From assembly GCA_030390025.1 (NCBI GenBank), contig CM059432.1, positions 27,530,001-27,594,000 of the forward strand: a stretch of 64,000 bases of DNA, in the 5' to 3' direction. The notes beneath the pieces are model-generated. The model did not search any database and had not been told where the DNA came from. It was given only the letters and a program-made list of their open reading frames with translations. This document shows positions 1,513-64,000 of the stretch, piece by piece; the stretch's first letter is position 1, and each line of letters begins with the position of its first letter. The position numbers and the translations under genes were made by a program. The stretch is from Squalus acanthias (Eukaryota).

Positions 1513-1936
1513 TGGAGAATGTGTGTGCAGCCTACTCCTAATTCAAATGATCTGATATTCAACATTTTTTGGTGTAAATTCCCACTTTGCTTAATTCGAA
1601 TCACTGGATAATGTTATTTTATTTAGCATAAATAAACAACATGGAATCAGGAGTAGATGTACTATAAATGTAGCTAGATCACATTTTAGTACACCACAGA
1701 ACTTTACTAAACAAAGCAGCCAGCCACCACCATCATCATCCTTACTCTTAATAACCAACCCGAGAGATTACAGGGTGATGCAATCAAAGTATTTAAAATT
1801 ATGAAAGAACGAGACAGATTAGCTAGAAGTAGACTGCTTTCAGTAGTTGAGGGGTCAAGAACGAGGGGCTATAGATCGAAGATTAAAGGGAAAAGATTAA
1901 ATGGAAGAGATTTAGAACAGGGGGCAAGAGTTTTTT

Positions 1937-2895
1937 GTATTAGTTCCTGGGATGTGGGCGTCGCTGGCAAGGCCAACATTTATTGTCCATCCCTAATTGC
2001 CCTTGAGAAGCTGGTGGTGAGCCGCCTTCTTGAACTGCTGCAGTCCGCGTGGTGAAGGTACTCCCACAGTGCTGTTAGGGAGGGAGTTCCAGGATTTTGA
2101 CCCAGCGACGATGAAGGAACAGCGATATATTTCCAAGTCAGGATGGTGTGCAACTTGGGAGGGAAATTTGCAGGTGATGGTGTTCCCATGCGCCTGCTGC
2201 CCTTGTCCTTCTAGGTGGTAGAGGTCGCAGGTTTGGGAGGTGCTGCTGAAGAAGCCTTGGCGAGTTGCTGCAGTGCATCTTGTAGATGGTACACACTGCA
2301 GCCACGGGGCGCTGGTGGTGGAGGGAGTGAATGTTTAAGGTGGTGGGTGGGGTGCCAATCAAGCAGGCTGTTTTGTCCTGGATGGTGTCGAGCTTCTTGA
2401 GTGTTGTTGGAGTTGCACTCATCCAGCCAAGCAGAGAGTATTCCATCAAACTCCTGACTTGTGCCTTGTAGAAGGCTTTGGGGAGTCAGGAGGTGAGACA
2501 CTCGGCCGCAGAATACCAAGCCTCTGACCTGCTCTTGTTGCCACAGTATTTATGTGCCTGGTCCAGTTAAGTTTCTGGTCAATGGTGACCCCCAGGATAT
2601 TGAAGGTGGGGGATCCGGCGATGGTAATGCCGTTGAATGTCATGGGGAGGTGGTTAGACTCTCGCTTGTTGGAGATAGTCATTGCCTGGCACTTGTGTGG
2701 TGCAAATTTTACCTGCCACTTATCAGCCCAAGCCTGAATGTCATCCAGGTCTTGCTACATGTGGGCATGGACTGCTTCATTATCCGAGGAGTTGCGAATG
2801 GAACGGAGCACTGTGCAATCATCAGCGAACATCCCCACTTCTGACCTTATGATGGAGGAAAGTCATTGATGAAGCAGCTGAAGATGGTTGGGCTG
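1937..2895 (-). mobile_element. CR1-group LINE, 5'-truncated RT C-terminal fragment
   Basis: ORF fragments NILGVTIDQKLNWTRHIN and LDTIQDKTACLIG; 3' tail shared with copies at 26352, 50135 and 58380. Confidence 0.85.
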
Positions 2896-11929: not shown

Positions 11930-12818
11930 AATTATCCAATGTTTAAAACCAACTCGACAACATACAGATAAAAGCTGCCTCACTTCCAAGCAGTTGCTGT
12001 AAAACAGATTATTGCTGTGCCTGGTTTTATTTTTGAAGCTGCTGTTTCATTACAAAAATGGAATCCAATCGAAAGCCTGTCTACGTAATAATCTGATCAG
12101 TATGACACGAATTAAAGCAGCGACATTATGCTCTCTCCTGCAAGAAACACTTTGTGAGCTAATTATGATTTTCCAAGTAAAGAAGGAAAGAAAGGATTTG
12201 CATTTATACAGCACCTTTCATGACCTCAGGACATCAGCACTTTACAGGCAATTGAGTACTTTTGAAGTGCCGTCGCTGTTGTAATATAGGAAACGCGGTA
12301 GCCATTTTGGGCACAGCAAGATTCCACAAACAGCAGCAATGACATCATGTTTAGATAATCTGTTTTAGTGAGGTGGGTTGAGGGATAAATATTGGCTGTA
12401 GATATCTGTAATAAAACCAGAAATACATGGTGTGGATATTTCAGGTGTGGACCCTTCATCACTACATACAATCATAGGCCCTGTTAATAACTGTGAGGCA
12501 GGAGCGAGGGGAGCTGGGGGAGAGATTTAGCAGCTGGGACACCTGGAAGTAGGGGTTTCCCGGAGGTCGTGCCGAATTTAACAGAAGGACCTGATTTAAA
12601 TTTTTTGCCTGTGTTTCCCGGCCGCAGCCAGCCAGATTGAGAGGCAGCCGGGGAGTAGAGGAGAGGTAATTTGGACATGGGGGAAGGGGGGGAGACTCAG
12701 CCATTGGGGAGGCGGTTGGCCATCAGGGGGTGGGATCAACCATTGGGGGGGGGCGTGGAGTGGGAGTTGCAGATCGGATATCGGAGGGAGGTGAGTTGGA
12801 CATCGGGATGGAACATCA

Positions 12819-15800
12819 GGCGTCCAATCACGGGGGAGGGTCCACCGATCGCACGGTCTGATCACTGGGGAGGGTCCACCGATCGCAGGGTCCAATCACG
12901 GGGAAGGGTCCACCGATCGCAGGGTCCAATCACAGGGGAGGGTCCACCGATCGCAGGGTCCAATCACGGGGAAGGGTCCACCGATCGCAGGGTGTGATCA
13001 CGGGGGAGGGTCCACCAATCGCAGGGTCCAATCACGGGGGAGGGTCCACTGATCGCAGGGTCCAATCACGGGGAAGGGTCCACCGATCGCAGGGTCTGAT
13101 CACGGGGGAGGGTCCACCGATCGCAGGGTCCAATCACGGGGGAGGGTCCACTGATCGCAGGGTCCAATCACGGGGAAGGGTCCACCGATCGCAGGGTGTG
13201 ATCACGGGTGAGGGTCCACCGATCGCAGGGTCTGATCACGGGGAAGGGTCCAACGATCGCAGGGTCCAATCACGGGGGAGGGTCCACTGATCGCAGGGTC
13301 CAATCACGGGGAAGGGTCCACCGATCACTGGGTCTGATCACGGGGAAGGGTCCACCGATCGCAGGGTCCAATCACGGGGGAGGGTCCACTGATCGCAGGG
13401 TCCAATCACGGGGAAGGGTCCACCGATCGCAGGGTCTAATCACGGGGAAGGGTCCACCGATCGCAGGGTCTGATCACGGGGGAGGGTCCACCGATCGCAG
13501 GATCCAATCACGGGGGAGGGTCCACTGATCGCTGGGTCCAATCACGGGGGAGGGTCCACCGATCGCAGGGTCCAATCACGGGGGAGGGTCCAATGATCAA
13601 AGGGTCCAATCACGGGGGAGGGTCCACCAATCGCAGGGTCTGATCACGGGGGAGGGTCCAACGATCGCAGGGTCCAATCACGGGGGAGGGTCCACTGATC
13701 GCAGGGTCCAATCACGGGGGAGGGTCCACCGATCGCAGGGTCCACTCACGGGGGAGGGTCCACTGATCGCAGGGTCCAATCACGGGGAAGGGTCCACCGA
13801 TCGCAGGGTCCAATCACGGGGAAGGGTCCACCGATCGCAGGGTCTGATCACGGGGAAGGGTCCACTGATCGCTGGGTCCAATCACGGGGGAGGGTCCACC
13901 GATCGCAGGGTCCAATCACGTGGGAGGGTCCACCGATCGCAGGGTGCGATCACGGGGAAGGGTCCACCGATCGCAGGGTCTGATCACGGGGAAGGGTCCA
14001 CCGATCGCAGGGTCCAATCACGGGGAAGGGTCCACCGATCGCAGGGTCCAATCACGGGGAAGGGTCCACCGATCGCAGGGTCCAATCACGGGGGTGGGTC
14101 CACCGATCGCAGGGTCTGATCACGGGGGAGGGTCCACCGATCGCAGGGTCCAATCACGGGGGAGGGTCCACCGATCGCAGGGTCCAATCACGGGGGAGGG
14201 TCCACCGATCGCAGGGTCCAATCACGGGGAAGGGTCCACCGATCGCAGGGTCCAATCACGGGGAAGGGTCCACCGATCGCAGGGTCTGATCACGGGGGAG
14301 GGTCCACTGATCGCAGGGTCCAATCACGGGGAATGGTCCACTGATCGCAGGGTCCAATCACGGGGAAGGGTCCACCGATCGCAGGGTCTGATCACGGGGG
14401 AGGGTCTACTGATCGCAGGGTCCAATCACGGGGGAGGGTCCACTGATCGCAGGGTCCAATCATGGGGAGGGTCCACCGATCGCAGGGTCTGATCACGGGG
14501 GAGGGTCCACTGATCGCAGGGTCCAATCACGGGGAAGGGTCCACTGATCGCAGGGTCCAATCACGGGGAAGGGTCCACCGATCGCAGGGTCTGATCACGG
14601 GGGAGGGTCTACTGATCGCAGGGTCCAATCACGGGGGAGGGTCCACTGATCGCAGGGTCCAATCATGGGGGAGGGTGCACCGATCGCAGGGTCCAATCAC
14701 GGGGAAGGGTCCACCGATCGCAGGGTCCGATCACGGGGGAGGGTCCACTGATCGCAGGGTCCAATCACGGGGAAGGGTCCACCGATCGCAGGGTGTGATC
14801 ACGGGGGAGGGTCCACTGATCGCAGGGTCCAATCACGGGGAAGGGTCCACTGATCGCATTGTGTGATCACGGGGAAGGTTTCACCGATCGCAGGGTCCAA
14901 TCACAGGAGAGGGTCCACCGTTCGCAGGGTCCAATCACGGGGAAGGGTCCACCGATCGCAGGGTGTGATCACGGGGGAGGGTCCACCGATCGCAGGGTCC
15001 AATCACGGGGAAGGGTCCACCGATCGCAAGGTCTGATCACGGGGGAGGGTCCACTGATCGCAGGATCCAATCACGGGGAGGGTCCACCGATCGCAGGGTG
15101 TGATCACGGGGGAGGGTCCACCGATCGCAGGGTCCAATCACGGGGGAGGGTCCACTGATCGCAGGATCCAATCACGGGGAGGGTCCACCGATCGCAGGGT
15201 GTGATCACGGGGGATGGGTCCACCGATCGCAGGGTCTGATCACGGGGGAGGGTCCACCGATCGCAGCGTCCAATCACGGGGGAGGGTCCACCGATCGCAG
15301 GGTCTGATCACGGGGGAGGGTCCACCGATCGCAGGGTCTGATCACGGGGGAGGGTCCACCGATCGCAGGGTCTGATCACGGGGGAGGGTCCACCGATCGC
15401 AGGGTCTGATCACGGGGGAGGGTTCACTGATCGCAGGGTCCAATCATGGGGAAGGGTCCACCGATCGCAGGGTCCAATCACGGGGGAGGGTCCACCGATC
15501 GCAGGGTCCAATCACGGGGAAGGGTCCACCGATCGCAGGGTCTGATCACGGGGGAGGGTCCACTGATCGCAGGGTCCAATCACGGGGAAGGTTCCACCGA
15601 TCGCAGGGTCTGATCACGGGGAAGGCTCCACCGATCGCAGGGTCCAATCACGGGGAAGGGTCCAACGATCGCAGGGTCCAATCACGGGGGAGGGTCCACT
15701 GATTGCAGGGTCCAATCACGGGGATGGGTCCACCGATCGCAGGGTCTGATCACGGGGGAGGGTCCACTGATCGCAGGATCCAATCACGGGGGAGGGTCCA

Positions 15801-16594
15801 CCGATCGCAGGGTCTGATCACGGGGAAGGGTCCACTGATCGCAGGGTCCAATCACGGGGGAGGGTCCACTGATCGCAGGGTCCAATCACGGGGGAGGGTC
15901 CACCGATCGCAGGGTCCAATCACGGGGAACGGTCCACTGATCGCAGGGTCCAATCACGGGGGAGGGTCCACCGATCGCAGGGTCCACTCACGGGGGAGGG
16001 TCCACCAATCACAGGGTCTGATCACGGGGAAGGGTCCACCGATCGCAGGGTCCAATCACGGGGAGGGTCCACCGATCGCAGGGTCCAATCACGGGGAAGG
16101 GTCCACCGATCGCAGGGTCCAATCACGGGGAAGGGTCCACTGATCGCAGGGTCCAATCACGGGGGAGGGTCCACCGATCGCAGGGTGTGATCACGGGGGA
16201 GGGTCCACCGATCACAGGGTCTGATCACGGGGGAGGGTCCACCAATCGCAGGGTCCAATCACGGGGAAGGGTCCGCCAATCGCAGGGTCCAATCACGGGG
16301 AAGGGTCCACCGATCGCAGGGTCCAATCACGGGGAAGGGTCCACCGATCGCAGGGTGTGATCACGGGGGAGGGTCCACCGATCGCAGGTTCCAATCACGG
16401 GGGAGGGTCCACCGATCGCAGGGTCCAATCACGGGGGAGGGTCCACCGATCGCAGGGTGTGATCACGGGGGAGGGTCCACCGATCGCAGGGTGTGATCAC
16501 GGGGGAGGGTCCGTCGGTCACGGGGGAGGGTCCACCGATCACAGGGTCTGATCACGGGGGAGGGTCCGTCAGTCACAGGGTCCGATCACGGAGG
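12819..16594 (+). repeat. 34-bp GC-rich minisatellite, about 110 copies
   Basis: Unit GG(A/G)AGGGTCCAC(C/T)GATCGCAGGGTC(CA/TG)ATCACGG; 34-nt period (e.g. GGGTCCACC at 12838 and 12872). Confidence 0.97.
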
Positions 16595-16771
16595 AGGTAA
16601 GAAGGTTTGTTTGGTGGGCCGGGAGAAGCACTCCTGCTCCTCTTGGCCCAGCAAGCAGTGCTGTAAAGGCTCGTACCTGATGGATCCGGCTCTTCACGCC
16701 TCCCTTCAGCTGCCAGGCCGCGGACGTTAAAAGTAAAGCTCTTGTTAAATTGGAGGCACACAGCCTCATTA

Positions 16772-24205: not shown

Positions 24206-26351
24206 GTCTGTATACTGCTCAGTTGCATACTGCTTTTGCCAACGGAGTCATTGGAGAAACTGTTAGCCTCACAGTTAACAGAAGAATAGATAGTTGGATG
24301 AGGCACTAGACACTGCTGTGGCCCAGACTGGGTCACTGGCTTCAGGAGAGGAGGGGGAGGTGGAGAGCGTTGCTCAAGTAAACAAACTTAGACAGGAGAT
24401 GTGGCAATTTCCCAGCATACTTTGCTGCTGTGTCTTTCTCTGAGTGTGTTGACTGACAGTGCTGGCAGTGACCTGGTGCCATTGAATATCGAACTTGTGC
24501 CCCAGTAAATCATTGCTGCAGACAAAGTCCAGCCTTATCATAACCTGCCAACAGTAAACTAGAAATGTCGAATATGAATGCTTCAATGGTTAGAACACAC
24601 TGAACCTGAGTGAGCACAGCCGGTTAGTACTGGTAGCCAAGCAGAAGCTGCTTTTATATTGGTTTAGTGATGTCAGTGCCTTCTGACACGTGGGCCTCTC
24701 AAAGCTAACTTGCCAAGTTCGCTAAGCCCAGCTCCTATTTTTTTGCTGGCTCTCCTCAACTAGCAGAAAAAGTAGCCAGATCACCTCTACACCCCCCCAC
24801 CCCCCCCCCCCACTCCCCGCACTGCCTCCCCCCGCCCTACTGGAGTGCTGCCGTAGCCTAAAAGGTGAGACAACAACTTATCTTAGGTGCCAGAAGGTTG
24901 CAGGCATCCTCTTCGCATCTGATCTGATGGGGCAAGCCACCTCTAACACTCAGCTTCTTTGGGCATTCTTCTTCTCTGGCCGACACTGGGCGGAATCTCC
25001 GGAAAATGACGCAGGAGCTACTATGATGGCACTCCCATGTCACGTACAATGTAAATGGTCCTGTCTGTTCTATGCCCATACCGGGGATGTCCCTGCATCA
25101 AACACAAAGGGGCCAGAGACCCAGCGTGGCCAACTAGGCTGCCATCGACCATGGAACCATATTCCTCTTTCCTTGCCTGATTGAAGGAAACCAAAGTCTC
25201 CCCATCTCCATCATCGCAGTCCTTTTTCTTGCACTTCCTAGGTGGCCAGATCCAAAGCACTATCAGAAGAGGCTTGGCAACATGTCACTACTGCCCCTTC
25301 TGAGCATAGTGCATTATTTGGTAGAAGCCAAGAAAGAGGAAAGGCAGAAAATGCCTTGAAAAGATGGAGAGAGTATTTTCCATTTGCTCTGTATGTAATT
25401 AGCCAGTGTAATCTAGGCCAGGAAGGCCCCAGCTTTGATCCCCTTTCTATGCCATGCTTGTTGATCTCAGCTAGGGCTAGAGTAGGAACAGTAGAGTTGG
25501 CCTCATTGCCCTCAGGCTAAAAAATCACTCTGGGATTTTGTTCCTGACTGCTGCTGTAATATGTCCGTGTGTATATCTGCGCATGCGGCCAGATGTCAGG
25601 ACAGCGTGAGTTACCGTCTTCAGATAGAACAGAGGAGAAAACTGGATGTACTACAAAGCAGATGGAGTCTCACCAGCAAGGACAATAACAAAAATGAGAT
25701 CTGTGGAAAATGCGAGGGCTGAAGTTAAACCCCGCCTCCTAAGGTAAAGCTCAGTGACACAAATTTGCTAAATGCTTAAAGACCAAGTGTAACTTGTTTC
25801 TTGAAGAAAAAACCTCATCGCTCCACCATTGGTGGCCGTGCCTTCAGCTGCCTAGGCCCTAAGCCCTGGAATTCCCCCCCTAAACCTTTGCATCGCTACC
25901 TATCTCCTCCGTTCAGATGCTCTTTAAAACCTACCTCTTTGATCAAGCTTTTGGACACCTGTCCTAATGTCTCCTTATGTGGCTCGGTGTCAAGTTTCAG
26001 TTAGCTAACGCTCCTGTGAAGTACCTTGGGATGTTTTACATTATTAAAGGTGCTATATAAATGCAAGTTGTTGTTGTTGATGAGAATAGTTATGTTTTTG
26101 AAGGCACAGATACCAGGTCAGCTGACCTGCGCATGGTAAAACATTCACTTTTCTATCTATGTTCTTTTCTAACAACACCACAAATAAATGATTAACTGAC
26201 ATTAACCACACCAGCAAGCAACATTAATCAGATAAAGTATCCTGAATCTCAAAAACTAAACTCAAGGTCTTGGCTGTTTCACCTTTAAACCATCTGGTTG
26301 TTTCTGTTGTTGTTTCTTAAAGATAGCGCGACAGGGTGCCAAAGGTATTTT

Positions 26352-29300
26352 TTTTATTCATTCCTGGACTGTGAGCGTCGCTGGCAAGGCCAGCATTTAT
26401 TGCGCATCCCTCATTGCCCTTGAGGTGGTGAGCCGCCTTGAACCGCTGCAGTCCGTGTGGTGAAGGTACTCCCATAGTGCTGTTAGGGAGGGAGTTCCAG
26501 GATTTTGACCCAGCGACAATGAAGGAACGGCGATATATTTCCAAGTCAGGATGGTGTGTGACTTGGAGGGGAACTTGGAGGTGGTGGTGTTCCCATGCGC
26601 CTGCTGCCCTTGTCCTTCTAGGTGGAAGAGGTCACGGGTTTGGGAGGTGCTGTCAAAGAAGCCTTGGTGAGTTGCTGCAGTGCATCTTGTAGATGGTACA
26701 TACTGCAGCCACAGTGCGCCGGTGGTGGAGGGAGTGAATGTTTAAGGTGGTGGATGGGGTGCCAATCAAGCGGGTTGTTTTGTCCTGGATGGTGTCGAGC
26801 TTTTTGAGTGTTGGAGCTGCACTCATCCAGGCACGTGAAGAGTATTCCATCGCACTCCTGACTTGTGCCTTGTAGATGGTGAAAAGGCTTTGGGGAGTCA
26901 GGAGGTAAGTCGCTCGCTGCAGAATACCCAGCCTCTGACCTATTCTTGTAGCCACAGTATTTATGTGGCTGGTCCAGTTAAGTTTTTGGTCAATGGTGAC
27001 CCCAGGACATTGATGTTGGGGGATTCGGCGATGGTAATGCCATTGAATGTCAAGGGGCGGTGGGCGCTCTCTTGTTGGAGCTAGTCATTGCTTGGCACTT
27101 GTATGGCGTGAATGTTACTTGCCACTTATCAGCCAAAGCCTGAATGTCATCCAGGTCTTGCTGCATGCGGGCGTAGACTGCTTCATTATCTGAAGAGTTG
27201 CGAATGGAACTGAACACTGTGCAATCATCAGTGAACATCCCCACTTCTGACCTTATGATGGAGGGAAGGTCATTGATGAAGCAGCTGAAGATGGTTGGGC
27301 CTAGGACACTGCCCTGAGGAACTCCTGCAGCGATGTCCTGGAGCTGAGATGATTGGCCTCCCACAGCCACAACCATCTTCCTTTAGAAACATAGGAACAG
27401 GAGTAGGCCATTCAGCCTATCGAGTCTGTGCCGCCATTCAATGAGATCATGGCTGATCTGCGATCTAACTCCATATACCTGCCTTTGACCCATATCCCTT
27501 AATACCTTTGGTTAACAAAAAGCTATCAATCTCTGATGTAAAATTAACAATTGATCCAGCATCAATTGCCGTTTGCGGAAGAGAGTTCCAAACTTCTACC
27601 TCCCTTTGTGTGTAGAAGTGTTTCCTAATTTCACTCCTGAAAGGTCTGGCTCTAATTTTTAGACTATGCCCCCTAGTCCTAGAATCCCCAACCAGCGGAA
27701 ATAGTTTCTCTCTATCTACCTTATCTGTTCCCCTTAATATCCAGAAAACTTTGATCAGATCACCCCTTAACCTTCTAAATTCTAGGGAATACAACCCTAA
27801 TTTGTGTAATCTCTCCTCATAACTTAACCCTTGAAGTCTGGGTATCATTCTGGTAAACCTACGCTGCACTCCCTCCAAGGCCAATATATCCTTCCTAAGG
27901 TGTGGTGCCCAGAACTGCTCACAGTACTCCAGGTGTGGTCTAACCAGGGTTTTGTATAGCTGCAGCATAACTGCTACCCCCTTGTACTCTAGTCCTCTAG
28001 ATATAAAGGCCAGCATTCCATTAACCTTTTTGTTTATTTTCTGTACCTGTTCATGACATTTTAATGATCCATGTACCTGGACCCCCAAGTCTCTTTGGAC
28101 CTCCACTGTTTTTAGCTTTTCACCATTTAGAAAGAACCCTGTTCTATCCTTTTTAGGTCCAAAGTGGATGACCTCATATTTGCCTACATTGAAATCCATT
28201 TGTCACAGTTTTACCCATTCACTTAATCTATCAATATCCCTTTGTAATTTTATGCTTTCATCTACACTGCCTACAATGCCGCCTATCTTTGTGTCATCGG
28301 CAAATTTAGATATATGACTTTCTATGCCATCATCTAAGTCGTTAATAAATATTGTGAATAGTGGAGGCCCCAACACAGATCCCTGCGGGACACCACTAGT
28401 CACATCCTGCCAATTTGAGTACCTGCCCATTATCCCTACTGCCTGTTCCCTGCCGCTCAGCCAATCTCCCAACCAGGTCAATAATTTTCCATCAATTCCA
28501 TGGGCTTCTGCCTCAGATAAAGTCTCTTATGTGGGACTTTATCAAATGCCTTCTGGAAGTCCATATAAGTGCTAGGTATGACACCAGCCAGTTGGGAGTC
28601 TTTCCCCTGATTTTACTAGGGCTTCTTGATGCCACACTCGGTCAAATGTTACCTTAATGTCAAGTGCAGTCACCTCGCCTCTGGAATTCAGCTCCTTTGT
28701 CTATGTTTGGACCAAGGCTGTAATGAGGTCTGAAGCCGAGTGGTCCTGGCAGAACCCAAACTGAGCATCGGTGAGCAGGTTATTGGTGAGTAAGTGCCGC
28801 TTGATAGCACTGTCAACAACACCTTCCATCACTTTGCTGATGATTGAGAGTAAACTGATGGGGTGGTAATTGGCCGGATTGGATTTGTCCTGCTTTTTGT
28901 GGACAGGACATACCTGGGCAGTTTTCCACATTGTCGGCGAGATGCCAGTGTTGTAGCTGTATTGGAACAGCTTGGCTAGAGGCGTGGCTAGTTCTGGAGC
29001 ACAAGTCTTCAACACAACAGCCGGGATATTGTCGGGGCCCATAGTCTTTGCTGTATCCAGTGCGCTCAGCCGTTTCTTGATATCACATGGAATGAATCAA
29101 ATTGGCTGAAGACTGGTGGGGACCTCTGGAGGAGGCCGAGATGGATCATCTACTCGGCATTTCTGGCTGAAGATTGTTGCAAACACACCAGCCTTGTCTT
29201 TTGCACTTGCATGCTAGGCTCTGCCATCATTGAGGATGGGGATGTTCATGGAGACTCCTCCTCCTGTCAGTTGTTTAATAGTCCACCACCATTCACGACT

Positions 29301-30713
29301 GGATGTGGCAGGACTGCAGAACTTTGATCGGATCTGTTGGTTGTGGGATCGCGTAGCTGTGTCTATAGCATGCTGCTTTTGCTGTTTAGCATGCACGTAG
29401 TCCTATGTTGCAGCTTCCCAAGGTTGGCACCTCATTTTTAGGTACACCTGGTGCTGCTCCTGGCTACACTTCTCATTGAACCAGAGTTGGTCCCCTGGCT
29501 TGATGGTAATGGTAGAATGAGGGATATGCCGGGCCATGAGGTTACAGATCGTGCTGGAATACAATTCTGCTGCTGCTGACGACCCACAGTGCCTCACAGA
29601 TGCCCAGTTTTGAGCTGCTAGATCTGTTCTGAATCTATCCTATTTAGCAATGTGGAAGTGCCACACAGCATGATGGAGGGTGTCCTCAGTGTGAAGACGG
29701 GACTTTTTCTCCACAAGGACTGTGCGGTGGTCACTGTCATGGACAGATGCATCTGCGACAGGGAGATTGGTGAGGACGAGGTCAAGTAGGTTTTTCCCTG
29801 CCTGTTGTAGGCCCACTCTGGCAGCTATGTCCTTCAGGACTCAGCCAGCTCAGTCAGTAGTGGTGCTACTGAGCCACTCTTGGTGATGGACATTGAAGTC
29901 CCCCACCCAGCGTACATTCTGTGCCCTTGCTACTCTCAGTGCTTCTTCCAAGTGATGTTCAACATGGAGGAGTACTGATTTATCAGCTAAGGGAGGGCGG
30001 TAGGTGGTAATCAGCAAGAGGTTTCCTTGCCCATGTTTGAACTGATGCCATGAGACTTCATGAGGTCCGGAGTCAATGTTGAAGTCTCCTACAGGGCCAC
30101 TTCCTCCCGACTGTATACCACTGTGCCGCCACCTCTGGGACAGTGAGACAGGACATACCCAGGGATGGTGATGGAGGAATCTAGGACATTGACTGAAAGA
30201 TATGATTCTGTTAATATGACTATGTCAGGCTGTTGCTTGACTAGTCAGCTCTCCCAATTTTGGCACAAGTCCCCAGATGTTTGTGAGGAGGACTTTGCAG
30301 GGTCGAATGGGCTGTGTGTGCTGTTGTCGTGTCCGAAGCTGGTGCCGAGGTCGATGCCGGGTGGTCCATCCGGTTTCATTCTTATTATTGTGTCATTGCG
30401 GTTTGTTACAACTGATGGGCTTGCTAGGCCATTTTAGAGGGCAGCTAAGAGTCAATCACATAGCTTTGGATCTGGAGTCACATATAGGCCAGACCGGGTA
30501 AGGACGGCAGATTTCCTTCCCTAAAGGACATTAGTGAACCAGATGGGTTTTTACCACAATCCGGTAATTCATGGTCACCATTACTGATACTAGTTTTTCA
30601 TTCCAGATTTATTTAATCAACTGAATTTAAATTCCACAGCTGCCATGGTGGAATTTGAAGTTCACGTGTCTGAATTATTAGTCCAGTAACATAACCACGA
30701 TGCTACCGTTCCC
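26352..30713 (-). mobile_element. Near full-length decayed APE-RT LINE (CR1 group), about 3.2 kb without the nested insert, with a tRNA-like 5' head
   Basis: APE start KVLLTNIWGL..QQPDIVILTES (about 30200-30296); GPDNIP..NYHPISLLS..QFGF; GVPQGSVLGP..FTDD; 3' tail near 26352. The 5' 316 bp match the SINE at 34831. Confidence 0.85.
27385..28568 (-). mobile_element. CR1/HER1-like LINE nested in the LINE above
   Basis: SGVPQGSVLGP..KFADDTK; LYKTLVRPHLEYC.QFWAP..LGLYSLEFRRLRGDLI; tail CCTATGTTTCTA. Splits the host RT between 27384 and 28569. Confidence 0.9.
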
Positions 30714-33124
30714 TCACTTGACACTGCTTATTTGTAAAGTGGCATAATCGCCTCTCTACTATCCAAAAGTCTTTCTTCTTTTGTTTGCCTTGCTGATTTT
30801 CTCCCCTCCTGTCCTGCAGACACTATTCCACGGGCACTGGTCACCCATCGGTATCTCTTGCAAGTAACCATTCTTAATATGTGAGCCTTAACAGTGTCTG
30901 TTGCCAAGCGGTTTCACTGAAGGGGAGGTGTCACAGCCAATTCCGTCCTGTCTTCACCTAACATCCACACACACACCGACACTTCCAGCTGGGGTGGGGG
31001 TTACTGGAACGTGATATGCTGATAGTGTGAGATGAATTAGAATGGGAGGTGGCTCATGTGGAAGATAAATACCAGCACTGACCAGTTGGGCCAAATGGGC
31101 TGTTTCTGTGCTGTAAATTCAATATAATTCTATGACCAGGGTGAGAAACCCCGGCTGATCTTTGCCTCTCTAGCCCATGGGCACCAAGGGGAATTTTAAG
31201 GTCTGAACCAGCATCACAGCTGTGGTCAGCATGGATTGGAATCAAAGCTAAGTTGTTTCTGGTCTGTACGGCTCAGCTACTTCCTGGATAAACATCCTTA
31301 GCCATCAGAGACGCTCAAGGTTTTAAAAAAAAATCGCAGTAGCAATTACAATAAACTTTGAAGTGACATCATTCAGTGTCTAGTAATCTTGGGGCAGTGC
31401 AGCATTGTTTTACCTCTGGAGCCTGGCTTCAAATCGAACCCTGACTAGAGGGATGTAGATTTACTCTTTCTGCTGACTTTATGTGACATGAGTTTGTTTA
31501 CAGTCAATCCAGTTCCTAGTTTGCTCAAAACTATCAATAATTGTCATTGGGAAATGGAAATGTCACACTGTTGCTGGGATGGCCACTTTTTGATATTGAG
31601 ATGAAGTTATTGTTAGGGCAAAATAGAAGGAATTTTGTCCTACCTTGGAGTATTCTACCAAGCACTGGAAATAGAGCAATAGGCTCCAAACAAGTCACGC
31701 TAACCATACTATGCCCAACCTGGGAGTGCTTGATCAGGTAATACAGATATAGCTTTACACTGCAAGTAATCCATCCTAATCATCGCTACACTTGAGTGCT
31801 TGATGAGGTTGTGTAGAGGGAGTTTTACGCTGCAAGGCCGAAAAATAAATACAAGAGTGTGCTGTATACACCAGATTTCTGGTCAACGATTTGTACAAGG
31901 TCGGGACACAGAGTTCTGTTGCCAGCAAACATGAAGAAATAATTAGAAGTTAACTTTCCTGAAAACCAGCTCCTCTAATGGTGCAGGGAGCGTAACCAGG
32001 CTGCGGGTGAGTCATCCAGAACAGGATAGTGCCAGTTCTGATTTCCTGAGCGGAGTTAACTGATCTCAGCCGGGCAGTGGTGGGAGCGCTACAAATGATT
32101 TGCAGTAAAAGACATTCGACACTCGGTACACCACTCAAATCATCTCTGTTCTCCACAACAGACATCCATACAGCCTCTGGAGTGATGTCTGATCATTTAG
32201 AAGAATTAAAACATTCCACACTTGCTAACTTCTTTTCAGGATGTTTTTTCTGCCAATTGTCTTCTCTCCCCTCTCCTGACAGTGTTGACTTATTACCAGT
32301 GAACAGCTCCATGGGCTCCACTTGCCATCCAGTACCTCCTCTAGATAGCGATTCTTCCACCGTGAGCCTAGGCAGGCAGTGTTGGCAGGCAACATAACAA
32401 TGAGGTAGGAGGAATCATAACAACAGCTTGGATTTAAATGCAGCGCCCTTTGTGTAGATAACGCACCCCATGGAACTTCACAGAGGTGTGGTTAGAAATG
32501 GATGTCGAGTCAAAAAGAGAGGTTACAAGGGGAGACTAAAGGGTAGAGCAATGAAGTGGGTTTTAAGGAGGGCCTTAAAGGAGGGGAGGGTGCTGGAGGG
32601 GCGGTAGGGTTTGGGGAGGGAGTTCCAGAGAATGGGACCTAATTGACTGAAGATACAGATGCCAAAGGCGCGGTGAAGGAGAAGGGGGCAGTGGGGATGC
32701 ACAAGATCCCAACCTCATCCCCAGCCAATTTATACATGCCCACTTTCAGCTTGATAGCGTCACTTGATAATGCTTGAACATTAGCAGTTTTGTTTCTCCT
32801 GCATAACTCAGGAGCACTGAGCTCATCCGCAGAACTGCGACCTCTGCCGAGACTGGGGAATCACACCTGGGATCTTCCTGACTCTACGGCTCAGCTCAGC
32901 TGCTCACTGAATAGACTCCCTTGGCTATTAATGGAACTTGCTGTCAGGATAATGAACTGCTAATTATTTCTTATGACGCTGGCCAAAGAACTCTGTGTTC
33001 TGACCTCAAAGTTCCCTTCAGATTGGGTTTAATTTTTATTTGTAGAAAGCTGAACTTACTGCCAGCTGCTTTGCACCAAGCTCACAAAAGTTATCAACTG
33101 GTTTTTAAAACTGCACCTTTAAAA

Positions 33125-34830: not shown

Positions 34831-35280
34831 GGGTACAATAGTGTAGTGGTTATGTTACTGGACTAGTAATCCAGAGGCCTGAATTAATAATCCAGAGAAC
34901 GTGGGTGCAAATCCCAACATGGTAGTTGGAGAAGTTAAAATCAGTTTAAAAAAAATCTAGAAATAATTTTTTTTTAAAGTTGGTATCAGTAGAGGTGACC
35001 ACCAAGCTGTCGAATGTCATTAAAAACTCAACTGGTTCACTAATGTTGTTTAGGGTAGGAAACCTGCTATCTTTACCCGGTCTGGTCGATATGTGACTCC
35101 AGTCCCACACCAACATGGTGGACTCTTAGCTGCCCTCTGAAGTGGCCGAGCAAGCCACTCAGTTGTGTCAAACCGCCACCAGCGGTTCAAGAAGGCCCAA
35201 CACCACCTTCTCAGGGCAATTAGGGATGGGCAATAAATGCTGGCCTTGCCAGCGTCTCAAGAATGAATAATAAAAAAAAA
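34831..35280 (+). mobile_element. Bipartite tRNA-headed SINE (LINE 5' head joined to LINE 3' tail)
   Basis: A-box-like TAGTGTAGTGG and B-box-like GGTGCAAATCCC. 34831-35176 aligns to rc(30398-30713); 35180-35280 aligns to the LINE 3' end and finishes in poly(A). Confidence 0.8.
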
Positions 35281-45505: not shown

Positions 45506-45962
45506 CAGCACGGTGGCATAGTGGTTGGGCAGCACGGTGGCATAGTGGTTAGCACTGGTGCCTCACAGCGCCAGAGACCCGGGTTCGAATCTGACCTCGG
45601 GTGACTGTCTGTGTGGAGTTTGCACATTCTCCCCGTGTCTGCGTGGGTTTCCTCCGGGTGCTCCGGTTTCCTCCCACAGTCCAAAAATGTGCGGGTTAGG
45701 TTGATTTGCCTATGATAAATTGACCCTTAGTGTTAGGGGGGGATTAAATATGTGGGGTTATGGGGATAGGATGGGATATGTTAGGGGGAATTAAATATGT
45801 GGGGTTACGGGATTAGGGTGGGATATGTGTACTGTGGGGATTAAAGCAGGGACAGGGTACTGGATTTGAATGATCAGCCATGATCGTATTGAATGGTGGA
45901 GCAGGCTCGACGGGCTGAATGGCCTACTCCTGCTCCTGGATTCTATGTTTCTATGTTTCTAT
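45506..45962 (+). mobile_element. HE1/V-SINE, full length, with a duplicated 5' end
   Basis: GGGCAGCACGGTGGCATAGTGGTTAGCACTG..GGTTCGAATC head, V-domain TCTCCCCGTGTCTGCGTGGGTTTCCTCCGGGTGCTCCGGTTTCCTCCCAC and CR1-type tail (CTATGTTT)n. Confidence 0.9.
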
Positions 45963-50134: not shown

Positions 50135-51081
50135 AATTCGTTCCTGGGATGTGGGTGTCGCTGGCAAGGCCAGCTTTTATTGCCCATCCCTAGTTGCCCT
50201 TGAGGAGGTGGTGGTGAGCCGCCTTCTTGAATCGCTGCAGTCCGTGTGGTGAAGGTAATCCCACAGTGCTGTTAGGGAGGGAGTTCCAGGATTTTGACCC
50301 AGCAATGATGAAGGAATGGCGATATATTTCCAAGTCAGGATGGTGTGTGACTTGGAGGGGAACTTGGAGGTGGTGGTGTTCCCATGCACCTGCTGCCCTT
50401 GTCCTTCTAGGTGGAAGAGGTCGCGGGTTTGGGAGGTTCTGCCGAAGAAGCCTTGGCAAGTTGCTGCAGTGCATCTTGTAAATGGTACACACTGCAGCCA
50501 CGGTACGCCGGTGGTGGAGGGAGTGAATGTTTAAGGTGGTAGATGGGGTGCCAATCAAGCAGGCTGCTTTGTCTTCGATGGTGTCGAACTTCTTGAGTGT
50601 TGTTGGAGCTGCACTTATCCAGGCAAGTGAAGAGTATTCCATCACACTCCTGACTTGTGCCTTGCTTTGGGGAGTCAGGAGGTGAGACATTTGTCGCAGA
50701 ATACCCAGCCTCTGACCTGCTCTTGTTGCCACAGTATTTATGTGGCTGGTCCAGTTAAGTTTCTGGTCAATGGTGACCCCAGGATGTTGATGGTGGGGGA
50801 TTCAGCGATGGTAATGCTGTTGAATGGTAAGGGGCAGTGGTTAGACACTTGCTTGTTGGAGATAATCATTGCCTGGCACTTGTGTGGCGTGAATGTTACC
50901 TGCCACTTATCAGCCCAAGCCTGAATGTCTTCCAGGTCTTGTTGCATGCGGGCATGGACTGCTTCAGTATCTGAGGAGTTGCGAATGGCACTGAACACTG
51001 TGCCGTCATCAGCGAACATCCCCACTTCTGACCTTATGCTGAAGGGAAGGTCATTGATGAAGCAGCTGAAGATGGTTGGGC
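50135..51081 (-). mobile_element. CR1-group LINE 3' fragment nested in an L2 remnant (about 49738-51560)
   Basis: PTIFSCFINDLP..MFADD..WADKWQVTF; L2 sequence continues on both sides. Confidence 0.85.
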
Positions 51082-58460: not shown

Positions 58461-59191
58461 GGGCCAAAAATTCGGCCGTTCTCGGGTGAGTACTCAGTGC
58501 GTACTCACCCGTATTCGTTCCCGAAGTGCTGGTTTCCTGCATGCACTGCGCATGCGCGGGAAACCGGCTCTTCCGGTATGGCGAAGGGGGCGGTTCCTAG
58601 GTGAACCGCGTGCGCACTAGAGGCTGCGCGCACGCAGCACACTTAGGTTTTTTTTCAGGTTTCAACGCGAGGGTAAGTATGGAAGATTCTACGCAAGTAA
58701 AAAGGAGGCATAAGATCCCTTTTGAACAAGGTAAGTAGTTAATTAAGTATAATTTTAAATTTTTTTAAAAGGTAAGTTTATTTTTATAACTTTTAAAAAG
58801 TATTTTAATTTTTTCAAAAATTAAAATTTTTGTTTAAAGTGGTTAATTTATTTAACTATAGTTATTTTATAAATGTGATGTTTTTTAAAAATTTATTTGA
58901 GGATTAGCTGTTCTTTTGGGGCCGATTTCAATTCACAGATTTGACAGGTCTCCTGTCAAATCTATGAATGAAAGATGGTCTGCTGCCATTGGCTCTCCAT
59001 GGCCCACGTGATCCCAGGGGTCGCATCGCACTAACTGCGCCCCTGGAACACGCAAGCACTGCGCGCCGGCTCTTGGGAGAGGCCCAGGACCCGAAGTTCC
59101 TGTGGGCCCAAAACACAACGGCAGGCGCGGTGGGTGATATCGCGCGTGATCCTTACCCCCGCGGCAAGCCTCCGAATCGAATTTCTAGGCC
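58461..59191. mobile_element. PIF/Harbinger-type MITE (731 bp)
   Basis: TIRs GGGCCAAAAATTCG / GGCCTAGAAATTCG (rc); AAT duplicated at 58458-58460 and 59192-59194; splits the LINE precisely. Confidence 0.82.
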
Positions 59192-59399
59192 AATATCATT
59201 ACCGTCATCGAATCTCCCACCATCAACATTCTGGGGGTTACCATTGACCAGAAACTTAACTGGACCAACCACATAAATACTGTAGCTACAAGAGCAGGAC
59301 AGAAGCTGGATATTCTGTGGCGAGTGTCTCACTTCCTGACTCCCCAAATCCTTTCCACCATCTACAAGGCACAAGTAAGGAGTGTGATGGAATACTCTC

Positions 59400-59614
59400 T
59401 GTCATAAATCGCAAGTAACAACTCAGGAAGTACTACTGGGCGGCCAGCTGGGGCGCCGTCCAGGGAGTATAAATACTCCGGCATGGGCCCACCTTGGACA
59501 GAGACAATCTGGAAACAGGAAGCTAGTGACTGCTAACTAGACCTCCATGTTTTGTTACAAGTTGATTAAAGCCTTGCTTTATGTTCAAGTGCGTAGTGAG
59601 TCTTTATTACGTCA
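59400..59614 (+). repeat. 5' LTR (215 bp)
   Basis: Identical by eye to the 3' LTR; TATAAA at 59469-59474; ATTAAA at 59565-59570. Confidence 0.97.
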
Positions 59615-59714
59615 ATTTAATCAACTTGATATCGTCTCCACGCTTTGGGTGATTCGGAACAACCAGCTGCAACTCGAACCACAGAAGGGAACTTGGGCAA
59701 GAAACTGATCCATC

Positions 59715-62700
59715 ATGGAAAAACTCCTTAGACCCGCTCGTCTCGACCTGGACCCGAATGCACCTGCGGCAGCAAAGGTATGGAAGCATTGGTTTCGTAC
59801 CTTTAGCAACTTTCTTGAAGAATGTGGGGCGGATGTCCCTAATAAGTTACGAATGCTTATCAACTACGTGTCTCCTCATGTGTATGATTATATTGAGGAC
59901 TGTATAGACTATGACACTGCTATCGAAATCTTACAGCAGCTATATGTCAAGTCCCCAAATGAAATCTTTGCTCGACACCTACTGGCCACAACTCGGCAGC
60001 AGCCTGGGGAATCACTCGATGAATTTCTCCAGAAACTTCGCAGGCTCAGCAAGGATTGTAACCTTAAAGCAGTTTCAGCTGAACAGTATCAAGAGGAACT
60101 AATCCGCGATTCCTTTATCAATGGAATCGCGTCCCCTTTTATACGTCAGCGCCTGCTGGAAAATAAAACCCTCAATTTACGGGCTGCTTATGACCAGGCG
60201 TGTTCCTTGGACTTGGCCAAGAAAAATACAGACACTTATCTCCCACCACGTGCACGGGCGGCGGCTATCTCCTTTAATGAGTCTTTCGGTAGGTCTCGGG
60301 CAGATGCCCCCACTGATGTTGACCCTATTCTAACAGACGACGACCCTACCCTAGAGGCCTTCGCTGATGACGACCCCGTCCTAGCAGCATCCTGGCAATC
60401 AGGAAGAAAGTGTTTCTTTTGTGGAGGGGCGTGCCATCACAGAAAATTTTGCCCGGCTCGTAATGTGACCTGCAATCATTGCAGCAAGAAAGGACACTTT
60501 TCCAAGGTATGCCAGTCACGGGCCTCTGCTAACAAGAAAGGCCGCTCCTCTAAAGTATACCGGTCGAGAGCTCCTGTTAGCTTCACAGCTGCTATCTATG
60601 GAGCTGCTCCTCCCCCAAGAACTACTGTTAAGGCTACAGTTGCCGAAGGGAAAATTGCCCCTCCTCCCATCACGGCTGTTTTTCCCCAAAGTTTGTCCCA
60701 TGCAGCCACGAAGGTTTCAGTAAATGGGCACACTCTAAGCGCGCTAATCGACTCCTGCAGCTCTGACAGCTTCATTAGTAAGCAGGCTGTCAACAGGTTA
60801 AAACTGCACATTTATCCCTCGGACAGGGAGATTGCAATGGCTCTGACAACTCTGACCACCAATTCTTCTGGCTTCTGTCTGGTCAACCTCATCCTCAACG
60901 GCCGCACGTATCTCTCCACCCGGCTCGGAGTACTCGCAAACTTATGCAGCGATGTGCTTCTGGGACAGGACTTCCAGAAGCAGCACAAGAAGATCACTTT
61001 TGAGTTTGGAGGGTCAAGGCCGGAGCTTACCATTTCTAAGGTGCCATTTTGTGCACTCTCGGCGGCCTTACTCGGTGAACCCTCCCTGTTTGCCAATCTT
61101 CCCCCCCGCTGTAAACCCATAGCCACCAAATCGCGGCGCTTTAGCCAAGATGATCGAGCGTTTATTGAGGCGGAAATCTCTCGCCTTTTAGTCGACGGTA
61201 TTATCGAGCCATGTTCATCTCCCTGGCGGGCTCAGGTCGTCATCGTGAGGAATCCCTTAAAACAACATAAAAAACGTCTGTGTATCGATTATTCGCAGAC
61301 TATTAATCTATATACCGATCTGGATGCCTACCCGCTGCCACGCATAGATGACATGGTCAACAACCTTGCCAAATACAAGGTATTCTCGACCTTCGATTTA
61401 AAAAGCGCGTACCATCAGGTGCCACTGCAAGACTCCGACAAGAAGTATACAGCCTTTGAGGCCAATGGTCGGCTTTTCCAGTTTCGCCGCCTTCCATTCG
61501 GGGTCACCAATGGGGTGGCCGTCTTCCAACGGGCCATGGATGGCCTAGTCCGGCAAGAGAACTTGACGGATACCTTTCCGTATTTAGACAATATCACTAT
61601 TGCCGGCCATGATCAAAAGGAGCATGACGCCAATCTTCAGAGATTTTTTGACGTACTCCGCCGTCGCCACTTAACATTAAACGAATCCAAATCGGTGAAG
61701 TCGGTGCCATCGGTGAACATTCTTGGCTACTGGGTGGGCAACGGTGTTATTAAACCGGACCCAGAGCGACTTCGTCCACTTCAGGAGCTCCCTCCCCCGA
61801 CGAACCTTGGCTCTCTTCGTCGGGCACTTGGCATGTTTGCTTATTACGCAAAATGGATACCACACTTCTCCGATAAAATACAGCCCCTGCTCCATGCGAA
61901 GTCTTTTCCATTGGAAGCTACGGCTATTTCTGCCTTCAACCTCCTCAAACGACAGCTGGAGAAAGCCACGCTTCGCTCCATTGACGAAAATCTTCCTTTT
62001 GTGGTCGAATGCGATGCATCGGAGGTGGCGATCTCCACTACCTTGAATCAAGGTGGCCGACCCGTGGCATTCCTATCCAGAACCTTGCAGGGTAGCGAGC
62101 TCCATTACCCCCCCGTCGAGAAGGAGGCTACGGCCATCATCGAGGCTGTACGCCAATGGGGTCATTTTCTTGCTCGGCGTCATTTTACGCTTATAACTGA
62201 CCAGCGCTCTGCGGCCTTCATGTTGGATAACCGGAGGCGCACGAAAATCAAAAATAATAAAATTCAACTCTGGAGGATGGAGCTGGCTGCCTTTGGATAT
62301 ACTATCTGTTACCGACCCGGCAAACAGAACGTGGCCCCAGATACCTTCACACGGGCATTTTGCTCCTCAATGTCAACGTCGACTCTGGCGGATTTGCATA
62401 TGGACTTATGCCATCCTGGTGTGACCCGCATGTTGCACTTTGTGCGCTCCAAAAATCTACCATTTTCAACCGAGGACGTAAAGAAAACATGCTCCTCCTG
62501 TAGGATTTGTGCAGAATTGAAACCACAATTCTTTCGCCCATCAGATGGCTTACTCATACATGCAATGCAGCCTATGCAGAGGCTCAGCATAGACTTTAAA
62601 GGGTCATTGCCTTCGTCGACAAGGAACACCTACCTACTTACGATGGTGGTCGAGTATTCACGCTTTCCCTTCGCCTTCCCCTGCCCTAATATGCTTACCT

Positions 62701-63656
62701 CTACGGTAATTAAATGCCTCGATCAGGTCTTTCCCCTTTGCGGGACGGCCAATTTTATCCACACTGATCGGGGTCCCTCCTTTATGTCGAGTGAACTTAA
62801 AAGTTATCTCTCCCAACGGGGAATCGCCTCAAGTAGGACGACACCATATCACCCAATCGGTAACGGACAGGTTGAACGATACAATGCCATCATCTGGAAC
62901 GCTGTCCGTCTGGCGCTAAGGTCACGCAACCTGCCGGACCAGCAGTGGGAAACGGTCCTCCCCGACGCGTTACACTCTATCAGGTCTCTTCTCTCCACAT
63001 CTACTAATGTCACGCCTCATGAGCGATTCTTCAAATTCCGGCGTCGCTCTACACATGGGACGTCTCTACCGTCATGGTTGGTGGCTCCAGGCCCGGTACT
63101 ACTCCGGAGGTTCGTCCGGTCTGCCAAAAACGACCCTCTCGTTGACGAGGTGGAGTTAACGGAGGTAAACCCCACGTATGCGCACGTACGGTACCCTGAT
63201 GGCCGGGAGACCACCGTCTCGCTCCGAGATCTGGCTCCCTGCCCAACCGGTCACACGGGCCCGAATGATGAAGGATCCCCCGACAATGATATCAACACTC
63301 CGCACCCCTATGAAAATGACGCCCCGCCTGGGACATCGGGGGATCTGCCGGCAACGCTACCGGATCAACTCAGGGAGCTGGACGCTCCCCGTAGGATGGC
63401 CACCCGAAACCAGGACGCCGGACAATCTCCAGCCACGACCCGGGATGAGGCCAGCTCAGCACCTGTGGGGACCCGCACCCGGAGTCATGATATTCCCAGT
63501 CCTCCACAGGATGATCAAGATGACGCGGACTCTACTGACTTACCGGTACGGGCCAAGCGACCCAGGGACCAGGACACGGTCCGGGGAGACGTGCCTTCCA
63601 GTCACAAGCAGAGAGCTAAACGTCTGCGGCTATTTCTGGTCCGCCTAGTCCGTTAA
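59715..63656 (+). CDS. Gag-Pol polyprotein, 1313 aa
   Basis: Two CX2CX4HX4C knuckles; protease LIDSCSSDSFI; RT LCIDY..FDLKSAYHQ..LPFG..YLDNI; RNase H CDAS..EKEA..TDQ..APD; integrase HHCC plus D(IDFKG), D(TDRG), E(GQVER). Confidence 0.96.
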   Translation: MEKLLRPARLDLDPNAPAAAKVWKHWFRTFSNFLEECGADVPNKLRMLINYVSPHVYDYIEDCIDYDTAIEILQQLYVKSPNEIFARHLLATTRQQPGESLDEFLQKLRRLSKDCNLKAVSAEQYQEELIRDSFINGIASPFIRQRLLENKTLNLRAAYDQACSLDLAKKNTDTYLPPRARAAAISFNESFGRSRADAPTDVDPILTDDDPTLEAFADDDPVLAASWQSGRKCFFCGGACHHRKFCPARNVTCNHCSKKGHFSKVCQSRASANKKGRSSKVYRSRAPVSFTAAIYGAAPPPRTTVKATVAEGKIAPPPITAVFPQSLSHAATKVSVNGHTLSALIDSCSSDSFISKQAVNRLKLHIYPSDREIAMALTTLTTNSSGFCLVNLILNGRTYLSTRLGVLANLCSDVLLGQDFQKQHKKITFEFGGSRPELTISKVPFCALSAALLGEPSLFANLPPRCKPIATKSRRFSQDDRAFIEAEISRLLVDGIIEPCSSPWRAQVVIVRNPLKQHKKRLCIDYSQTINLYTDLDAYPLPRIDDMVNNLAKYKVFSTFDLKSAYHQVPLQDSDKKYTAFEANGRLFQFRRLPFGVTNGVAVFQRAMDGLVRQENLTDTFPYLDNITIAGHDQKEHDANLQRFFDVLRRRHLTLNESKSVKSVPSVNILGYWVGNGVIKPDPERLRPLQELPPPTNLGSLRRALGMFAYYAKWIPHFSDKIQPLLHAKSFPLEATAISAFNLLKRQLEKATLRSIDENLPFVVECDASEVAISTTLNQGGRPVAFLSRTLQGSELHYPPVEKEATAIIEAVRQWGHFLARRHFTLITDQRSAAFMLDNRRRTKIKNNKIQLWRMELAAFGYTICYRPGKQNVAPDTFTRAFCSSMSTSTLADLHMDLCHPGVTRMLHFVRSKNLPFSTEDVKKTCSSCRICAELKPQFFRPSDGLLIHAMQPMQRLSIDFKGSLPSSTRNTYLLTMVVEYSRFPFAFPCPNMLTSTVIKCLDQVFPLCGTANFIHTDRGPSFMSSELKSYLSQRGIASSRTTPYHPIGNGQVERYNAIIWNAVRLALRSRNLPDQQWETVLPDALHSIRSLLSTSTNVTPHERFFKFRRRSTHGTSLPSWLVAPGPVLLRRFVRSAKNDPLVDEVELTEVNPTYAHVRYPDGRETTVSLRDLAPCPTGHTGPNDEGSPDNDINTPHPYENDAPPGTSGDLPATLPDQLRELDAPRRMATRNQDAGQSPATTRDEASSAPVGTRTRSHDIPSPPQDDQDDADSTDLPVRAKRPRDQDTVRGDVPSSHKQRAKRLRLFLVRLVR

Positions 63657-63694
63657 AGGAAGACTGGACTTCCAAACCTTTTAGGGAGGAAGAA

Positions 63695-63909
63695 TGTCAT
63701 AAATCGCAAGTAACAACTCAGGAAGTACTACTGGGCGGCCAGCTGGGGCGCCGTCCAGGGAGTATAAATACTCCGGCATGGGCCCACCTTGGACAGAGAC
63801 AATCTGGAAACAGGAAGCTAGTGACTGCTAACTAGACCTCCATGTTTTGTTACAAGTTGATTAAAGCCTTGCTTTATGTTCAAGTGCGTAGTGAGTCTTT
63901 ATTACGTCA
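63695..63909 (+). repeat. 3' LTR (215 bp)
   Basis: Direct repeat of 59400-59614, preceded by the polypurine tract. Confidence 0.97.
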
Positions 63910-64000
63910 CTCTCCACTTGTCTGGATGAGTGCAGCTCCAACAACACTCAAGAAGCTCGACACCATCCAGGACAAAGCAGCCCGCTTGATTCGCACCCCA

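Follow-up and report, generated by a model that had tools for sequence, protein, structure and literature searches.

In this study, we found that a Zenon-type LINE of the dogfish Squalus acanthias opens with a tRNA-derived, SINE-like head, and comparison with published consensus sequences confirmed that the join between this head and the coding region is, as judged from sequence, a family trait and not a chance neighbour. The window, that is, the whole stretch of DNA analysed, comprises 64,000 nucleotides (GenBank assembly GCA_030390025.1, contig CM059432.1, positions 27,530,001 to 27,594,000 of the forward strand), and all coordinates given here are counted from its first letter. We established the anatomy of the element, the join of head and coding region across the family, and the make-up of a partner SINE in which the same 5' part is followed by the LINE 3' tail.

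Results

A full-length but decayed copy of the LINE occupies 26348..30713 on the minus strand. The start quoted in the preliminary description was located at 30713, which is the first base of the element; a run of eight A (A8, 26355-26348) closes it, and the depth of contigs aligned to 26200-31000 fell to flank level past both ends, 565 contigs having loose ends of diverse sequence at 26348. On the genome the element covers 4,366 nt, and the total length of about 3.2 kb given previously holds only once a nested CR1 is removed (about 3.18 kb; 3,180 nt from 30713 to 26352). From its 5' end, the element comprises the tRNA-derived head (30636..30713), recognized by its boxes, an anticodon-arm-like stem and a start that is the same in published consensuses; a conserved body common to LINE and SINE (30398..30635; core 30551-30398, 127/154 identical); and a LINE-only leader (30297..30397), in which a basic N-terminal extension of the APE frame aligns with the N-terminus of a relative, P0040, from its fourth residue. 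The APE endonuclease region (29700..30296, low boundary approximate) is broken and was recognized by Pfam (PF03372, E 0.014; PF14529, E 4.4e-5; both below the curated cut-off) and by tblastn matches to P0011, P0003 and P0017. It is followed by a linker and the first part of the RT (28567..29699; PF00078, E 5.2e-5), which is 51-54% identical to P0010, P0011, P0012 and P0015, and, after an interruption, by the second RT part, the C-terminus, a 3' UTR with a short terminal hairpin and the A8 tail (26348..27384; PF00078, E 1.7e-13). This last part shares 91% identity with two other window copies of the same family, both 5'-truncated and on the minus strand, which self-comparison placed at 1917..2893 and 50136..51081.

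The interruption is a 5'-truncated, canonical CR1-like fragment of 1,182 bp (27385..28566), nested in the same orientation, with an RT match of its own (E 1.2e-8) and 36% identity over 108 aa to the host RT. It is foreign to the Zenon family, because the host sequence resumes at 27384 and the other window copies match that side only. A target-site duplication was looked for around the LINE and around the SINE, and none was found. The present copy is dead and not autonomous now because of its stops, frameshifts and nested insertion.

In keeping with an origin from a cartilaginous fish, translated pieces of the LINE matched predicted proteins of Heterodontus, Cetorhinus, Heptranchias, Pristiophorus, Scyliorhinus and Mobula. 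Many shark gene models with LINE pieces (P0001, P0002, P0005, P0008, P0016, P0018-P0020 and others; 54-89% identity) point to exonisation or annotation errors. A further fragment of the same Zenon family (59191-59400, resuming at 63910-64000) surrounds an LTR-type element of 4.5 kb (59401-63909, plus strand) with identical terminal repeats of ~210 bp (TG...CA) and a 5-bp target duplication; the identity of the repeats suggests that this element is young. The window also holds a GC-rich tandem array of ~3.8 kb (12817-16597; offsets in multiples of ~34 bp, ~90% identity between copies) and two inverted, near-identical repeat pairs, 6528-6830/9714-10016 (98%) and 16786-17063/45684-45961 (96%).

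The APE start (KVLLTNIWGL) lies at 30296 and is thus 417 nt away from the 5' end of the element, in agreement with the roughly 420 nt described before. The leader contains twelve AUGs, and its longest AUG-started frames have 44 and 42 codons; therefore, there is no ORF1, and the earlier statement that no room is left for one was borne out. The frame of 44 codons (MKPDG..., 30245..30379, minus strand) overlaps the APE start out of frame. No in-frame AUG precedes the APE in the window copy, where the AUG at 30379 is out of the APE frame, as it is by eye in the stingray consensus HypSab_Zenon-1. In the predicted protein P0017, by contrast, a single frame leads from that AUG into the APE; this protein has no TNIW motif, however, and resembles a copy with a frameshift. 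Non-AUG, IRES-like starts have been put forward for LINE ORF2, though only as a possibility.

By sequence, the window LINE is an elasmobranch Zenon of the CR1 group, a label based on its DNA match to published consensuses and on two structural features: a single ORF with APE and RT and no ORF1, and a poly-A tail (the A8 at 26355-26348, with A-rich ends in five other aligned 3' ends). The marks of canonical CR1, an esterase ORF1 and a non-poly-A tail, were not found in it. In an RT tree of 110 columns, built with unlabelled relatives only, the host fell among those relatives and away from the nested CR1 fragment (80/96), with no branch strongly supported. According to Stuart et al. (2026, PMC13343379; bioRxiv 10.64898/2026.01.13.699120), Zenons are universally devoid of ORF1 and end in poly-A, and the clade is present in elasmobranchs, coelacanth and hagfish. 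The missing ORF1 is therefore ordinary. It had been presented as odd for the clade, a view that we abandoned, as Zenon and Rex1 universally, and many L2 too, are without ORF1. The window LINE resembles the Zenons of Stuart et al. in its length of about 3.2-3.3 kb, in having no ORF1 and in its poly-A tail; it differs in being a broken copy with a nested CR1.

The join of head and coding region was followed in the consensuses from the supplement of Stuart et al. (2026). Head, body and leader open all seven elasmobranch Zenon consensuses (by eye, first 400 nt each), which come from five species, namely great white, stingray, whale shark, catshark and, three times, dogfish (SquAca_Zenon-1, -2 and -3, HypSab_Zenon-1, and the CarCar, RhiTyp and ScyCan consensuses; lengths 2,886-3,314 nt). 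The head is absent from the three hagfish and coelacanth Zenon consensuses (3/3; by eye, first 400 nt). The first base of SquAca_Zenon-1 matches 30713, and the 5' 380 nt of the window LINE are nearly identical to it by eye. Six perfect B-box 10-mers occurred six times in the visible text of ~1,003 consensuses, always in elasmobranch Zenon heads, with a chance expectation of 0.016 in the seven rows and ~2.2 in all rows. The B box is intact in six of the seven consensuses, and degenerate in the stingray consensus and in the window LINE copy. In the same ~1,003-consensus supplement, motifs from the window matched Zenon rows only, except that one motif also matched one L2 row. Being related, the seven consensuses do not amount to seven independent tests.

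For the read evidence, contigs from four of 24 listed public runs (X1, X6, X12 and X15) were aligned to 26200-31000 with 80% likeness required. That X15 is RNA is a guess, and it was excluded as expression evidence. Summed depths for X1/X6/X12/X15, which do not equal copy number and to which SINE copies add in head and body, were 199/180/43/0 in the outer flank, 502k/1,114k/162k/14k in the head, 864k/2,063k/1,141k/22k in the body, and 724k/797k/311k/4.6k in the LINE-only leader and APE start. Depth was unbroken from head to APE and collapsed at 30708 and beyond in all four runs. A 1-nt insertion at 30396/30397 was carried by 21/16 contigs in X1, 26/24 in X6 and 7/8 in X15, so that each of these contigs reaches across the SINE/LINE divergence point; in X12 no contig carried it, at a depth of ~400 there. 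The dip in X1 at 30396/30397 (14.5k) was comparable to those at indels within the ORF (771 at 30090, 7.5k at 27064). Among the contigs listed for the four runs, none spanned the distance from head to APE, and among the 15 joints listed (with 11,986 further), none bridged the nested CR1 and none coincided with the SINE junction.

Of ten candidates from a protein search with a frame across the junction, none matched (0/10). DNA patterns had no match in viral, metagenome and prokaryote contigs, and a protein alignment search returned no viral locus and three metagenome loci, none of which reached the 5' end. The consensuses are the stronger evidence for the join, compared with the contigs. Together, the seven headed consensuses and the junction-crossing contigs in three of the four runs uphold the earlier suggestion that a SINE-headed LINE had amplified as a unit; the refutation proposed earlier, namely other full-length copies that lack the head or carry an ORF1, failed to overturn it, with the head present in 7/7 consensuses. 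A contig of X6, a run from a second organism, overlies 30708-31000 and matched 30685-31000 with 9 differences, so that this insertion appears to be common to both organisms.

Taken alone, the head of the 26348-30713 copy has a weak tRNA likeness. As described earlier, the minus-strand start bears A-box-like and B-box-like motifs, at 30705-30695 (one mismatch to the consensus box) and 30661-30651 (three mismatches), 44 nt apart, with an anticodon-arm-like stem at 30686-30670. When the 514-nt leader was shuffled 2000 times, a box pair equally good arose at any position in 61 shuffles, and at the 5' end (first 20 nt) in 2. On the LINE head, ARAGORN gave no tRNA call down to 70% of its threshold, Rfam gave no tRNA match at E<=10, and the folding z was 0.03; head, body and tails folded no better than shuffles (z -1.70 to 0.44), and a two-sequence consensus fold contained no compensatory pair among 52. 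The head is 77% identical (59/77) to the SINE head at 34831, from which it differs by the absence of 21 nt between arm and B box. Through the window SINE, called as tRNA-Thr(AGT), and through the intact boxes in six of seven consensuses, the head counts as tRNA-derived with A and B boxes, as in SINE2 elements.

In the SINE, a second hairpin (34879-34900) separates the anticodon arm from the B box. By eye, its stem strands are swapped between the dogfish and three galeomorph consensuses, and it is absent from the stingray consensus and from the window LINE copy. Other SINE families in the window have better A and B boxes than the LINE head (54781, 33562, 18975 and 35403, minus strand; 45514 and 45538, plus strand).

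In the partner SINE (34831..35280, plus strand, 450 bp), the LINE head and body run straight into the final ~100 nt of the LINE, and poly-A is present. ARAGORN called tRNA-Thr(AGT) on it, and the Rfam tRNA match reached only 13.1 bits (E 3.6). Its 5' part is identical to the first 315 nt of the LINE at 244/313 positions and its tail to the last ~100 nt at 76/87, and BLAST gave no match to the LINE middle, the SINE having neither leader nor ORF sequence. By these alignments, the SINE is composed of both LINE ends. It may have formed from the LINE through deletion, or the LINE may have captured a SINE. Only this 450-bp element is shorter than 700 bp and non-coding, as a SINE should be, and the 3.18-kb coding LINE is neither. 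One X1 contig joined the body (30517) to the 3' region (26622), skipping 3,894 nt, and is possibly a further internally deleted form.

In a single-motif test for the V domain of V-SINEs, a 14-mer with at most two mismatches was found only at 45661 and 5937 and was absent from the head and the SINE; the inverted repeat pair 16786-17063/45684-45961 adjoins the motif at 45661. The tRNA-Thr-like head type agrees with MetaSINE, and by eye no likeness was seen to the bivalve members compared. The body motif had no match in the paper texts searched. A cnidarian SINE with the same body was considered and dropped as evidence, SINE2-2_NV being described as a V-SINE.

The coding strand of the LINE has one TTTT in 3,180 nt, two other copies of ~1 kb have none, and the nested CR1 has three in 1,182 nt; at the sole site, a third fragment has three T only and the two copies carry deletions. 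By eye, TTTT does not occur in the visible 400 nt of the seven consensuses, and the visible text of the whole file contains 2,750. This scarcity had a P of 0.016 against base shuffles and 0.004 against a uniform-synonymous null (expected 6.0), and was non-significant against a dinucleotide null (expected 3.1, P 0.195) and with codon usage kept (expected 2.7, P 0.19). Phe codons are TTC 18 : TTT 3 in the LINE and 7 : 10 in the nested CR1 (Fisher P 0.006). The LINE ORF favours C at third positions generally (139:83), and the avoidance of TTT somewhat exceeds this preference (binomial P 0.012). The T-run pattern is compatible with transcription by Pol III, no proof of it.

Discussion

A tRNA-type promoter sits inside its transcript, Pol III terminates at runs of at least four T, and Pol III RNAs are uncapped. 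Considering the above results, we propose that the head may act as an internal Pol III promoter for the whole 3.2-kb LINE RNA, a proposal in which our confidence and our doubt are about equal. The A and B boxes would be bound by TFIIIC, transcription by Pol III would begin with the first G, and the scarce T-runs would allow read-through to the LINE end. Translated from an uncapped RNA, the protein would then attach to the 3' tail and use target-primed reverse transcription to copy the RNA, and the partner SINE would be mobilised via the same tail. Since the transcript would itself contain the promoter, every full-length copy would inherit it. Several points count against the proposal: the T-run scarcity is non-significant with dinucleotides or codon usage kept, the seven consensuses are related, the B box is degenerate in the window copy and the stingray consensus, X12 has no junction-insertion contig, none of the listed contigs reaches from head to APE, and an RNA that would be uncapped has no in-frame AUG ahead of the APE in the window copy. 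Kojima (2018, PMC5786205) likewise expects LINEs to be Pol II transcripts and mentions that the two promoter types may conflict.

It is also possible, though somewhat doubtful, that the captured SINE module is functional while Pol II makes the LINE RNA, with the module as a Pol II promoter or through host read-through, and that the tRNA-like fold marks the 5' end for processing. Capping or 5'-end definition would thereby be solved without a 3-kb Pol III transcript, and ribozymes mark 5' ends in other ORF1-less LINEs. The swapped strands of the second hairpin likewise speak for RNA structure and not for DNA boxes alone, and codon usage accounts for the scarcity of T-runs. However, the best-kept parts are the A and B boxes at the extreme 5' end, TTT is avoided somewhat beyond the preference for C, and the stingray consensus and the window copy are without that hairpin.

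We regard it as improbable that head and body are a mere passenger, acquired when template switching attached a SINE 5' end on one occasion, and kept since with no role in transcription. The consensuses are more than 84% alike overall, so the shared heads could reflect recent common descent, and hagfish and coelacanth Zenons manage without one; yet the LINE needs some 5' promoter, its LINE-only leader measures only ~100 nt, and the boxes are intact while the spacers between them vary among species. Very improbable is a chance insertion of a SINE beside a 5'-truncated LINE, which the consensuses and junction-aligned contigs refuted for this locus. A SINE with the same head does occur in the window, and no target-site duplication brackets the LINE, but neither a SINE tail nor poly-A lies between body and leader, and the same junction recurs in all seven elasmobranch consensuses and in contigs of all runs except X12.

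Several known systems resemble the headed Zenon in part; the comparison also covered PMC7245038, PMC5499810, PMC4824008, PMC4758252, PMC3531059 and PMC3894237. The one precedent for a tRNA-like sequence in a LINE is RTE-1_DAn with its relatives (Repbase; Kojima, 2018, PMC5786205), a LINE with a tRNA-like sequence matching many tRNA-derived SINEs. It differs in belonging to the RTE clade, and it received a single-sentence mention, with neither position nor function, and its hits were set aside. Bov-tA, Mar-1, AfroSINE and SINE2-1_ACar each derive their body from the 5' end, and their tail from the 3' end, of a single RTE or Vingi LINE (Kojima, 2018); in those bipartite SINEs the tRNA head is on the SINE only, whereas in the Zenon case the coding LINE is headed too. 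The same source found 5' parts of RTE and Vingi only in SINE bodies, and the Zenon head and SINE differ from this set as a CR1-group case. Persaeus, a SIDE of lepidopteran Zenon, is likewise an internally deleted derivative of a single-ORF, poly-A Zenon, but has no tRNA homology and no Pol III promoter (PMC6740152). Bivalve SINEs are tRNA-headed with a CR1-Zenon 3' tail, and only the tails are common to the LINE (PMC11481361). The shark elements HE1 (V-SINE) and SacSINE1 (Deu-SINE) are tRNA-headed, and the tail of SacSINE1 is from L2.

The missing ORF1 and the poly-A tail are thus already published, and the tRNA head is unremarked in the text of Stuart et al. (2026) as available, in which the words 'tRNA', 'promoter' and 'polymerase' had no match (PMC13343379), the partner SINE being unremarked as well. 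In the literature searched, no paper describes a Zenon or other shark LINE as headed by a tRNA; Repbase, Dfam and subscription journals lay outside this search and may note the head.

In SINEBase, LINEs are defined as Pol II-transcribed and coding, and SINEs as Pol III-transcribed and non-coding. This line is blurred by an abundant vertebrate LINE whose head is that of a SINE. For annotation, such LINE heads would get masked as separate SINEs. If Pol III makes the LINE RNA, the elasmobranch Zenons would provide a naturally occurring Pol III transcript that is coding and several kilobases long, and with it a direct way to study the translation of uncapped RNA. Either way, the case shows modules passing between a SINE and a CR1-group LINE at the 5' end of the latter, and is thereby relevant to the origin of SINE bodies.
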